This document shows, one piece after another, positions 7,671 to 26,247 of a DNA stretch of 64,000 nucleotides; within the stretch, counting starts at the first letter, position 1, and each line of letters opens with the position of its first letter. The notes beneath the pieces are model-generated. The model worked only from the letters and a program-made list of their open reading frames with translations. It had not been told where the DNA came from and did not search any database. The translations under genes and the position numbers were made by a program. Source of the stretch: an uncultured Eubacterium sp. (lineage in GTDB: Bacteria > Bacillota > Clostridia > Lachnospirales > Lachnospiraceae); assembly GCA_947385775.1 (NCBI GenBank), contig CANDMI010000011.1, positions 504-64,503 of the forward strand. Direction: 5' to 3'.

Positions 7671-7748
7671 ATCGAGTAAGGCTTCCTCCACTCGCCGCGC
7701 GACCCTCATGCTGCGCAGCAACAAACTTTCATATGCACCTTTGCGCAT
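7671..7748 (-). mobile_element. 78-nt miniature group IIC intron-like remnant (copy A)
   Basis: Minus strand begins ATGCGCA one base after the terminator T-tract and ends CCTTACTCGAT followed by T. Confidence 0.6.
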
Positions 7749-7749
7749 C

Positions 7750-7777
7750 AAAAAAGGAGCCATAAGGCTCCTTTTTT
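7750..7777 (-). terminator. Bidirectional intrinsic terminator downstream of the recombinase
   Basis: AAAAAAGGAGCC-ATAA-GGCTCCTTTTTT perfect inverted repeat. Confidence 0.85.
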
Positions 7778-7831: not shown

Positions 7832-8971
7832 TCAATCGTTTCCAGCAGACATAAGCTCTGACAGCCTATCCATGTTCCTTTGTTTCGCTTCCATCGTCGG
7901 ATGGACATATCGGTCCATCGTAATCCGCACGCTGGCATGTCCTAAGATCTCGCTTAGGGATTTTGCGTCAAATCCAAGCTCCACACATCTTGTGGCAAAC
8001 GTATGGCGCAGCGCATGGAAATTTGCTTTGGAAATGCCGCACTTTTGGATGGCGGCAAGGAAATGGTTTTCCATCGTCCTTGGCTCGATGAATTTTTTTG
8101 GCGATCCGGTTAAAATAAATGCCTCCTGCTCCCCTTTGCGCTCCTTTGCCAAATGGAACACCTTATCTGGAAGCGGAATATATCTGACCGAGCAGATGCT
8201 TTTTGGCTGCGTAACGATTATTTTTGTTTTCTTTCTGCCTCCTTCCTCCGCCGGCACTCTTTCCATTGTCCGATGCACATAAAGCGTTTTTTCTGTAAAT
8301 GAAATATCCTCCCATTTTAACGCGCACAGCTCCCCCAGCCGGATGCCCGTATACAGACAGAGCATGATGCCAAATCCGCTGCCATCCATTTCCTCCGAAA
8401 GATAATCCTCCAGCGTGCGCTGTTCTTTCACGCTTAAGACGCGAAGCGGCCTGCGCGCCTGCTTTACCGGCATGTTCCGCAAATCCGTGACCGTGACGTT
8501 TCCATGTATTTTGGCAAAATCCAAAATCGTTTTTAAAACAGAAAATATCCCGGTGACTGTCTTTGGCGCAAGCCCGCTCTCCTTTTCGCCCTTAGGAGCC
8601 AAAAGCCTTTGTAAGCATTCAACAGCCTTTTCTCTCGTAATCTCTGTAATCAGCATATCCCCAAACTCCGGGATAAGGTAATGGGACAAAATCCCCTCGT
8701 ATTTTGCAATGCTTGTTTCTTTTAAAATCGGCTTTTGGGTTTCCATCCACTTTTCCGCAACTACCGCAAATAGCAGCTCTCCTCTTTTCCTACTTTTGTG
8801 CGTGCCAGTTTGCATCGCCTTTATAGCCTCATGCTTTTTCCTTAGCGTCTCTTCATAGCTTTTCCCGGAAACGTAGCCATAACGGATTTTGCCATCCACC
8901 CTGCATTTTACATATTTTCCTTCCCATCTTCCATTTTTCCTGCAATAAATATTTTCTCCTCTTCTTGCCAT
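7832..8971 (-). CDS. Tyrosine recombinase/site-specific integrase, intact
   Basis: MARRGENIYCRKNGRWEG arm domain; YTGIRLGE box I; HALRHTFAT...LGHASVRITMDRYVH box II with H-x-x-R, H and Y. Confidence 0.93.
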   Translation of the reverse strand: MARRGENIYCRKNGRWEGKYVKCRVDGKIRYGYVSGKSYEETLRKKHEAIKAMQTGTHKSRKRGELLFAVVAEKWMETQKPILKETSIAKYEGILSHYLIPEFGDMLITEITREKAVECLQRLLAPKGEKESGLAPKTVTGIFSVLKTILDFAKIHGNVTVTDLRNMPVKQARRPLRVLSVKEQRTLEDYLSEEMDGSGFGIMLCLYTGIRLGELCALKWEDISFTEKTLYVHRTMERVPAEEGGRKKTKIIVTQPKSICSVRYIPLPDKVFHLAKERKGEQEAFILTGSPKKFIEPRTMENHFLAAIQKCGISKANFHALRHTFATRCVELGFDAKSLSEILGHASVRITMDRYVHPTMEAKQRNMDRLSELMSAGND

Positions 8972-9104
8972 ATTTCTATGACCTCCTTTATCTTTTGTAA
9001 TTATTACAGGTACTATTTTGACAGAATCCATCTAAGACTACAGCGCTTAGAAACCGCTCCAAAATAAAAAACTTCCGCCCGTCTGGAAGATGAAAACAGC
9101 AAAA

Positions 9105-20871: not shown

Positions 20872-21060
20872 AAGCGCCCCAAAATGCCGTGCCCGAAATT
20901 TTGACGCCTAGCAAAGCTAGGTGGGTAACCTCAATGGAGCTTCTGCCTTCCACTGCGTAATGATGGCCTGACATCCGCGCCAAAATATTGGAATCCCGAA
21001 AACAAAAATGTAGGTTCAAAATATCGGGTTCTCGCACATTCCAGGGTAACGCTTTATCTA
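20872..21060 (-). ncRNA. ssrS: 6S RNA (probable)
   Basis: ~185 nt; 5' CCCUGGAAUG-UGC pairs with 3' GCA-CAUUUUGGG; UUGAACCUACAU and CCCACCU..GGCGUCAAAAUU segments resemble clostridial 6S RNAs as I recall them; strong promoter upstream. Confidence 0.75.
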
Positions 21061-26158: not shown

Positions 26159-26213
26159 ATCGAGTAGGGGAACGCCCTTCTCCCCTACTCGCGCGCCGGG
26201 CGCCCGTGCGCAT
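26159..26213 (-). mobile_element. 55-nt miniature group IIC intron-like remnant (copy B)
   Basis: Minus strand ATGCGCACGGGCGCCCGGCGCGCGAGTAGGGGAGAAGGGCGTTCCCCTACTCGAT|T, directly after the thrC terminator. Confidence 0.65.
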
Positions 26214-26247
26214 AAAAAGCGGCGCAGTTTCCTGCGCCGCTTTTTAT
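26212..26247. terminator. Bidirectional terminator between thrC and the CheX-like gene
   Basis: ATAAAAAGCGGCGCAG-TTTC-CTGCGCCGCTTTTTAT perfect inverted repeat. Confidence 0.88.

Follow-up and report, generated by a model that had tools for sequence, protein, structure and literature searches.

A small mobile repeat behind transcription terminators of Lachnospiraceae, with a tail resembling the 3' end of group IIC introns

The 64,000-nucleotide stretch analysed here (hereafter the window; contig CANDMI010000011.1 of assembly GCA_947385775.1, from an uncultured Eubacterium sp. of the Lachnospiraceae) contains two short segments, copy A and copy B, that lie behind intrinsic terminators. We found that both are decaying members of a multicopy, non-coding and strongly folded mobile element of Lachnospiraceae that targets terminators. 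A sequence-only reading of the window had described copy A as a 78-nt minus-strand segment right behind a terminator. It had suggested that the two ends of a group IIC (class C) intron were joined there, either as a recurring deletion product or as a member of a non-autonomous family that marks terminators genome-wide. The description was accurate in its coordinates and in the RNAfold structure, and R1, a covariance model of the family, recognises the segment with an E-value of ~1e-9. The genome-wide family was borne out as well, with 77 non-overlapping copies, while the descent from an intron by deletion was not. The best explanation of the whole, to which we assign a probability of only about 0.4, is that the element is chimeric, targets terminators and may spread by means of the group IIC intron machinery.

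Copies, target sites and fold of the family

The genome scan that the sequence-only reading had proposed was made with a regular expression and then with an nhmmer profile. It gave 86 matches in the 3.98-Mb draft genome, which correspond to the 77 non-overlapping copies. Because a pattern of the form ATGCGC..TACTCGAT is expected by chance only 0.02 times per window, the original observation is real and far beyond chance. A typical copy is 85-90 nt long, and the family consensus is ATGCGCAGGCCCGCATATGGAAGTTTGCTGCTGACGCAGCATGCGGGCCGCGCGGCGAGTAGGGAAGATGCTCTCCCCTACTCGAT. Three main subfamilies (V1-V3) and a rarer fourth variant differ in the sequence of one stem, P2, and keep its shape. Neither copy A nor the canonical copies nor the relatives in other species have any Rfam match at the gathering threshold or at E <= 10, and a literature search, which included the literal sequence, did not find a description of the element. 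The family is thus new in that it has no Rfam entry; small non-autonomous mobile repeats are a known kind, and the group II intron tail is the unusual feature.

The copies are found at one type of site. A terminator-like site, defined as a hairpin of dG <= -8 with a T-rich tail, precedes 48 of the 51 first or solo copies and 4.9% of random positions. Thirteen further copies sit head-to-tail behind another element, with a single T as the spacer between units. The upstream unit of such an array is usually the best preserved, as judged by profile bit scores, as would be expected if one T-tract is hit repeatedly. Most copies have an exact 5' junction (T-run, AT, then GCRCA), and a T occupies +1 after ...CGAT in 57 of 65 copies. 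All copies have one orientation relative to the terminator T-tract. They are not flanked by target-site duplications (TSDs), and ATGCRCA at one end is no inverted repeat of CTCGAT at the other. In 60 of 67 copies (90%) the sense strand has the G-rich sequence, that of the leading strand, compared with 80% of genes, a weak bias that does not separate the models discussed below.

Comparison of orthologous terminators, also proposed in the earlier reading, was possible at the site of copy B. In the spacer downstream of thrC, eight congeners have the terminator and lack the element, so copy B is an insertion and not ancestral sequence. Of 18 congeneric species, no more than 2 had even weak matches to the family. 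All four related strains or metagenomes (mouse and rat gut) were occupied at copy A and at about seven further loci, with only copy-number noise in arrays, which indicates that the insertions there have become fixed in the species. In the related strains the element was covered at 70-180x the read depth of its flanks.

The RNAalifold consensus of 42 copies has three helices. P1 joins GC.C of ATGCRCA with G.GC of a GCGCG linker (pairs 3-56, 4-55 and 6-53). P2 consists of a 9-bp stem, a purine-rich bulge of 10-11 nt (consensus around GGAARUUU) and a stem of 5-6 bp with a tetraloop. P3 pairs CGAGUAGGG with CCCUACUCG. Compensatory two-sided changes were found in 19 of the 27 pairs within the genome. 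In 81 copies from ~70 other Lachnospiraceae contigs, 95.8% of the cells were paired and 24 of the 27 pairs had changed on both sides, although P3, unlike P1 and P2, was partly fixed by the search pattern used to collect these copies. None of 500 shuffles and no slid control came near the observed pairing. The counts of G.U against A.C mismatches, ~42 and 36 in this genome and 18 and 10 in the comparison between genomes, did not decide which strand is functional. Their near equality in individual copies suggests that selection acts on active source copies and not on the inserted ones. Module B, the part from the 5' motif to the linker, was also compared by inspection with domain V, domain IVa and a ribozyme like that of hepatitis delta virus; the topology was wrong and the conserved catalytic nucleotides were lacking.

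The intron-like tail and the exchange of modules

Group IIC introns are established to recognise their targets by a stem-loop plus intron-binding site 1 (PMC7161350, PMC1702495). This genome has such an intron, and its multiple copies break the assembly: there are at least five, all after terminators, with ~50 nt of each end present. The 3' end is seen at five contig ends (C76, C79, C81, C107 and C148) as GGTGGTGTGAGAGGTCGGGAATTTCTCATTCAGAGAAATTTCCTCCTACTCGAT followed by T, and comprises the end of domain V and then domain VI with a bulged A 7 nt from the end. The ending can be written GTGAGAGG..CCTCCTACTCGAT, with T at +1 in all five. The 5' end is seen at four contig ends (C105_R, C30_L, C80_R and C81_L), each behind a terminator, as TTTTT followed by GTTTGCCCAGCATGGGCG; the start, also given as GTTTGCCCAGC, is of the GTTTG type, in contrast to ATGCRCA of the element. 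Two of the five resident intron copies lie directly upstream of elements, with a single-T spacer. The GIIM domain was not found in the assembly and the reverse transcriptase (RT) open reading frame (ORF) of this intron is absent from the contig set, probably because the assembly dropped a repeat contig of ~1.9 kb. Metagenomes scanned for an exact match to the 3' end of the intron gave nothing. We used the intron of a relative, G197, as the full-length stand-in. It is complete (1848 nt, with a 427-aa RT), lies after a terminator, matches Rfam group-II-D1D4-3 and RF00029, starts with GTATGACGGG (GTATG type) and ends with GAGAGGGGGATTAAATCCCCCTACTCGAT followed by T.

The two parts of the element behaved differently when aligned to the whole intron of 1848 nt. 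For module B (nt 1-57) the local alignment was at the shuffled mean. Module C, the 3' hairpin with the terminal AT, aligned better than all 300 shuffles, and in this genome the element aligns to the very last 12 nt of the intron. In G197, the element tail shares 23 of 26 positions with the last 27 nt (domain VI) of the intron of the same genome, with one gap. The family tail consensus is CGAGTAGGG..CCCTACTCGAT, compared with GAGAGG..CCTCCTACTCGAT in the intron, and the likeness extends to the 5' strand of domain VI (element GYGAG(U)AGG, intron GUGAG-AGG). Only one change is consistent: the element has an additional U (or C), with which the branch-point A (or G) pairs. The equivalent of the branch-point A is thus paired as U-A, and it is replaced by C-G in 16 of 80 copies from other species. 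Judged from these alignments, the tail in this lineage appears to have been copied from domain VI and the 3' terminus of class C group II introns. Module B is the constant part of the family and has no intron counterpart. The module boundary would therefore be the junction of domains V and VI.

It follows that only half of the claim of two intron ends holds. The 3' end is intron-like, while the 5' end is not an intron 5' end because the resident intron starts with GTTTG. The alignment to a full-length intron likewise supports module C and leaves module B at the null level. A recurring deletion product is contradicted by the single shared architecture, by subfamilies with compensatory changes in their stems, and by the paired and covarying branch-point A. 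The element resembles class C introns in its sense orientation just behind intrinsic terminators (48 of 51 sites here, 91 of 110 in other species), in the T at +1, and in a tail, GAG.AGG...CCUACUCGAU, that matches domain VI and the 3' splice site as compared in this genome and in G197. It differs from them in most other respects. It is 85 nt long and not ~1850 nt, and lacks the ribozyme core (domains I-V), an ORF, an RT/maturase, an intact ribozyme and a GUGYG-type 5' end. The core of module B is foreign to the intron, and the presence of the element does not track that of the intron. The hairpin and terminus are homologous to domain VI, yet the A is paired and not bulged.

In an order-wide sample, module B was detected in 20 of 301 genomes, belonging to at least four families. 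Hosts within the Lachnospiraceae include Acetatifactor, Roseburia, Butyrivibrio, Hungatella, Agathobacter and many metagenome-assembled genomes from mouse, rabbit and deer. Among the copies collected from ~100 other Lachnospiraceae contigs, 91 of 110 had a terminator-like site before them and 91 of 110 had the T at +1. Module B carries different tails in different lineages: GAGAATGTCGC-AA-GCGACATTCTTTTTT, itself terminator-like, in G315, G181, G157 and G141; GAGAGTTTCGC... in G072 and G138; and AGTAAACGAC... in G239, G260 and G159. The non-intron 3' hairpins of G315, G181 and G072 were unmatched by the resident introns. Some lineages add a 5' hairpin and an A-run complementary to the target T-tract. 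In the genome studied here there are copies of module B alone, which lie behind terminators, end exactly at GCGCG and continue into ordinary host sequence. No autonomous version was recognised: module B is on no contig end, and the copies of module B alone run into ordinary host sequence.

Conversely, the intron-like hairpin, ATCGAGTAGG...CCTACTCGAT followed by T, closes two other bodies behind terminators, one of ~125 nt in G600 and one of ~40 nt in G674, and the module B model recognises neither body. In all, this tail caps three unrelated bodies. Since module B occurs with various tails and the intron-like tail on other bodies, the family is modular and its tail is exchangeable. The body in G600 (contig C1, loci L134-L138) consists of three hairpins; the G674 element is at loci L139-L143. 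Their end hairpin is palindromic, ATCGAGTAGG-AGTCAG-CCTACTCGAT followed by T, and the loop AGTCAG is conserved across several genera.

Several observations were made beside these elements and introns. In G059 (C36, locus L017, 1204-1680), two stacked mini-elements lie between the terminator of a flavin mononucleotide (FMN) riboswitch and the downstream rib gene (ribD), so that read-through of the riboswitch adds them to the leader. In G315 (C41, locus L041, 70-200), a repeat of inverted ~45-nt units (GAGTCACTGGGGACGTATCAAATTGACTCATTGTGCACAATGAGTCAA...) lies downstream of a IIC intron, and it also lies beside a mini-element at C61 of the same genome. At C12:59633-61264 (L001), the genome studied here has a second group II intron, which is of another class (RF00029, 70 bits). 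It ends in CCTACTCGAC at a contig end and carries the zinc-finger C-terminus of its ORF; the GIIM domain was not detected there. In G181 (C3, locus L062, ~2735-2775), a IIC fragment of domain VI only, TGAGAGGACGGCGGTTAGTCACCGCCTCCTACTCGAT followed by T, is placed right behind the 3' end of a group II intron of a different class and looks like a 5'-truncated retro-copy.

Possible modes of spread

We tentatively favour retro-mobilisation through the group IIC intron machinery over a single-strand DNA transposase as the way in which the element moves. The process would be similar to that of short interspersed nuclear elements (SINEs). A SINE uses the tail of its partner long interspersed nuclear element (LINE). 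Here, read-through of the preceding terminator would transcribe the element, and its RNA may be recruited via the intron-like 3' tail by the RT and ribonucleoprotein (RNP) machinery of resident IIC introns. A DNA copy could then be made at the same type of site and in the same register (...TTTT^T) as that of the intron. Repeated hits on one terminator would produce the head-to-tail arrays, and template switching by the RT at the boundary of domains V and VI would produce chimeras with one tail and several unrelated bodies. In favour of this, the tail copies the intron terminus, and the target and register equal those of the intron. The intron 3' end was found in 134 of 401 genera, so the IIC type is very common in the family. 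As with SINEs, the element is short, non-coding and chimeric; its body shows no relation to the autonomous element, the same tail is found on several unrelated bodies, and the 3' tail is shared with a resident retroelement of the same genome (12 nt here; the 23 of 26 positions in G197). Unlike SINEs, it is bacterial and has neither poly-A nor a target duplication, its co-occurrence with the partner is no higher than chance, and the proposed partner is a ribozyme-based intron, which normally integrates by reverse splicing.

A number of results weigh against retro-mobilisation. Intron-like hairpins occur in 72 of the 401 genera, and by a hand tally 24 genera have both hairpin and intron, where 24.1 are expected; the presence of the hairpins is statistically independent of that of the intron. 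No RVT_1 domain was detected in 6 of 14 element-rich assemblies, and the closed genome G600 has one RT only, which is not an intron RT, and no group II intron RNA. Draft assemblies lose multicopy genes, as happened with the intron ORF here, so that absences of RT genes, and likewise those of transposase genes discussed below, are soft negatives. The RNA is 85 nt long without a ribozyme core, and we know of no mechanism by which a group II RNP integrates foreign RNA. Copies of module B alone and lineages with non-intron tails also follow terminators, which means that the tail is not needed for targeting. The exact 5' junctions are better explained by reverse splicing or a transposase than by imprecise target-primed copying. 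Moreover, the ~8 loci compared in four related strains showed no insertion polymorphism. It would also be conceivable, although highly improbable, that the elements are minimal substrates of a resident IIC RNP, which would dock their RNA through the domain-VI-like hairpin, reverse-splice it in trans into terminator T-tracts and perhaps also excise it from read-through transcripts. A trans-acting group II catalyst that serves degenerate introns is a long-proposed step toward spliceosomal introns and small nuclear RNAs, and such a helper, if real, would be a bacterial case of it.

The strongest competitor, which we nevertheless consider doubtful, is a derivative of a single-strand DNA transposon, mobilised in trans by a transposase (Y1 HUH) of the kind found in IS200/IS605 elements and in REP-associated tyrosine transposases (RAYTs). 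P2 would be the left-end hairpin and the 3' hairpin the right-end one, the T-tract would be exposed beside a hairpin on the lagging-strand template, and the likeness to domain VI would be capture or coincidence. The element does resemble palindrome-associated transposable elements (PATEs), repetitive extragenic palindromes (REPs) and bacterial interspersed mosaic elements (BIMEs). It is small, carries a hairpin close to either end, lacks terminal inverted repeats (TIRs) and TSDs, integrates in a single orientation on the 3' side of a short T-rich motif, with the mild strand bias given above, and holds the REP-like GTAG/CTAC in its stem. Both junctions are precise (T-run then ATGCRCA; CGAT then T), the element occurs independently of introns, and in one lineage (G239/G260) the 5' and 3' hairpins are identical, TAGTAAACGAC. 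An IS200-like element of the same order, in G072, also lands right behind terminator T-runs. Its copies at five loci of G072:C1 (L084, L095, L103, L107 and L110) are identical, encode a 158-aa Y1 transposase and have the junction ...TTTTTATT then GTGTTTAAG. The terminator niche of IIC introns and mini-elements is therefore used by a DNA transposon as well.

However, this assembly holds only a Y1 pseudogene fragment, and G141, G062 and G159 have many copies and no Y1 gene. Among 30 Y1 genes in 13 genomes, R1 found no module B within 1.5 kb, the flanks lacked the element hairpins, and no cognate gene with matching ends was seen. P2 and P3, the left and right hairpins, bear no relation to each other in most lineages, this genome included, and are alike only in G239/G260. 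No excised empty sites were seen at the ~8 loci of the four related strains or metagenomes. A transposase also leaves unexplained why the terminus is identical to the intron end over 12-27 nt including the T at +1, which as a coincidence has a probability of ~4^-11. That last fact is equally unexplained if the mechanism is an undescribed one, in which a host enzyme acts on the hairpin plus T-tract DNA, or module B has an activity, and the 3' hairpins are interchangeable accessories. We regard this as unlikely. It would account for module B as the only part conserved across families of the order, for module-B-only copies behind terminators, for the lack of any Rfam match, and for near-identical bursts where RT, group II RNA and Y1 were all not found (e.g. 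in G141). Yet it rests on negatives from draft assemblies and names no candidate enzyme.

Two further explanations have much less to recommend them. It is very unlikely that the element owes its spread to a benefit for the cell, as an RNA or DNA feature that would, for instance, boost terminators, stabilise 3' ends or bind a protein. The constant position behind genes, the stable fold and the terminator-like 3' hairpin of some lineages would suit such a role. The copies, however, decay neutrally, with G.U about as frequent as A.C and with internal deletions such as that of copy B; they are patchy among species and genera, form arrays, intervene between the FMN riboswitch and ribD, and are missing from the orthologous site of eight congeners. 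Least probable of all, and largely refuted, is an internally deleted IIC intron that keeps its own 5' end and the last ~10 nt, whether by repeated deletion or as a mini-intron that is still excised. The 3' end and the target site are indeed those of IIC introns, and ATGCG is superficially like GUGYG. But the introns start with GTTTG or GTATG, module B has no intron similarity and is found with non-intron tails, domain V and any Rfam group II match are absent, the branch A is paired and replaceable, and the variants are subfamilies and not independent deletions. Classical MITEs (miniature transposable elements with inverted repeats; Correia, RUP, MITEAba12) are similarly short, multicopy, non-coding, intergenic and gene-less, but the element has no TIRs or TSDs, and its orientation is strict and its target defined by structure.

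If it is the intron-like tail that mobilises the element, as in the retro-mobilisation that we favour, this would be the first bacterial counterpart of SINEs and would mean that group II machinery propagates non-ribozyme RNAs. The family is in any case abundant, with 77 copies here and intron-like hairpins in 18% of the sampled genera. Its position at the 3' ends of genes, and even in a riboswitch leader, matters for annotation, for the prediction of terminators and small RNAs, and for breaks in assemblies. It also bears on why terminators are a landing zone common to several unrelated mobile elements in gut Clostridia.

The two copies in the window and minor observations

The features of both copies are listed in Table 1. 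The terminator in front of copy A, read on the minus strand, consists of an A-run (7777-7772), GGAGCC (7771-7766), the loop TTAT, GGCTCC (7761-7756) and T6 (7755-7750), that is, AAAAAAGGAGCC-TTAT-GGCTCCTTTTTT. The ORF upstream of it, at 7832-9031 on the minus strand, matches Phage_integrase (PF00589, E = 1e-25). A single nucleotide, the G at 7749, separates terminator and element. Copy A (ATGCGCAAAGGTGCATATGAAAGTTTGTTGCTGCGCAGCATGAGGGTCGCGCGGCGAGTGGAGGAAGCCTTACTCGAT) starts with ATGCGCAAAGGTGCAT and ends with GCCTTACTCGAT; its termini are ATGCGCA at the 5' end and CCTTACTCGAT followed by T at the 3' end. R1 matches it over the full model (1-87) with 49.3 bits and E = 4.8e-9. In P2, the outer stem AAGGTGCAT/ATGAGGGTC has decayed, the purine-rich conserved bulge is ATGAAAGTTT, and the inner stem-loop is GTTGC-TGC-GCAGC. 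RNAfold predicted the terminator hairpin and the 3' hairpin CGAGTGG/CTTACTCG for this region, with z = -3.9. The CGAGT/ACTCG hairpin noted in the earlier reading is therefore present, but as a degenerate 7-bp form, with two G.U pairs, of a family stem of 9-10 bp (CGAGTAGGG/CCCTACTCG). Copy A belongs to subfamily V1 and has decayed, with mismatches in both stems.

Copy B was thought to have the same architecture with a different internal sequence. The architecture is indeed that of the family, and the internal sequence differs because the copy belongs to subfamily V2 and has lost the interior of P2, between two CGGGCGCC arms. Its domain-VI-like hairpin is intact (12 bp). R1 matches it with 52.8 bits and E = 8e-10, with 32 model positions skipped, and folding of this region gave z = -8.2. 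Deletions within hairpin arms that resemble this one were found at C9, C40, C115, C12 and C62. R1 had no significant match in the window besides copies A and B.

Table 1. Terminators, element copies and their parts in the window (positions of the 64,000-nt stretch)
Feature	Position	Strand	Basis
Intrinsic terminator, target of the insertion (copy A)	7750-7777	-	Sequence; 12-bp hairpin in RNAfold; upstream tyrosine-integrase gene
Copy A, degenerate 78-nt V1 member	7671-7748	-	R1 covariance model and nhmmer match C11:8251-8174
5' motif ATGCGCA (family consensus ATGCRCA)	7742-7748	-	Near-invariant columns of the family alignment
Long hairpin P2 of module B	7701-7741	-	Consensus structure with compensatory changes
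Linker GCGCGG, 3' strand of P1, junction of module B and the domain-VI-like module	7695-7700	-	Invariant columns G51 and G53
Module C hairpin CGAGTGG-AGGAAGC-CTTACTCG plus AT	7671-7694	-	Likeness to domain VI and the intron 3' end
T at +1	7670	-	Either the final T of the split T-tract or the final base of the element
Terminator of thrC-like gene, target of copy B	26214-26245	-	Sequence and folding: A5, GCGGCGCAG, GAAA, CTGCGCCGC, T5
Copy B, 55-nt V2 copy	26159-26213	-	R1 covariance model

Elsewhere in the window, a 6S/SsrS RNA gene (RF00013, 66.8 bits) lies at 20872-21050 on the minus strand. The contig ends of the assembly showed three other features. About 19 of them (e.g. C100_L, C136_R, C13_L, C2_L and C107_R) carry leftover Illumina adapter, AGATCGGAAGAGCACACGTCTGAACTCCAGTCAC... 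and AGATCGGAAGAGCGTCGTGTAGGGAAAG..., and more than 30 (e.g. C43_L, C45_L, C21_R, C106_R and C30_R) carry a second, larger repeat family, ...CCGGACGCTGGAAGCAAGCCGGGGGCCTGTCCGGATGTTCCGGCTCCGGGATGTAAGAAGCCCTAAGCATTCTG...CCATCCATGGCGGCAATCCC.... A (GACA)n/(CTGT)n microsatellite is present at the contig ends C59_R and C7_R, which probably join.

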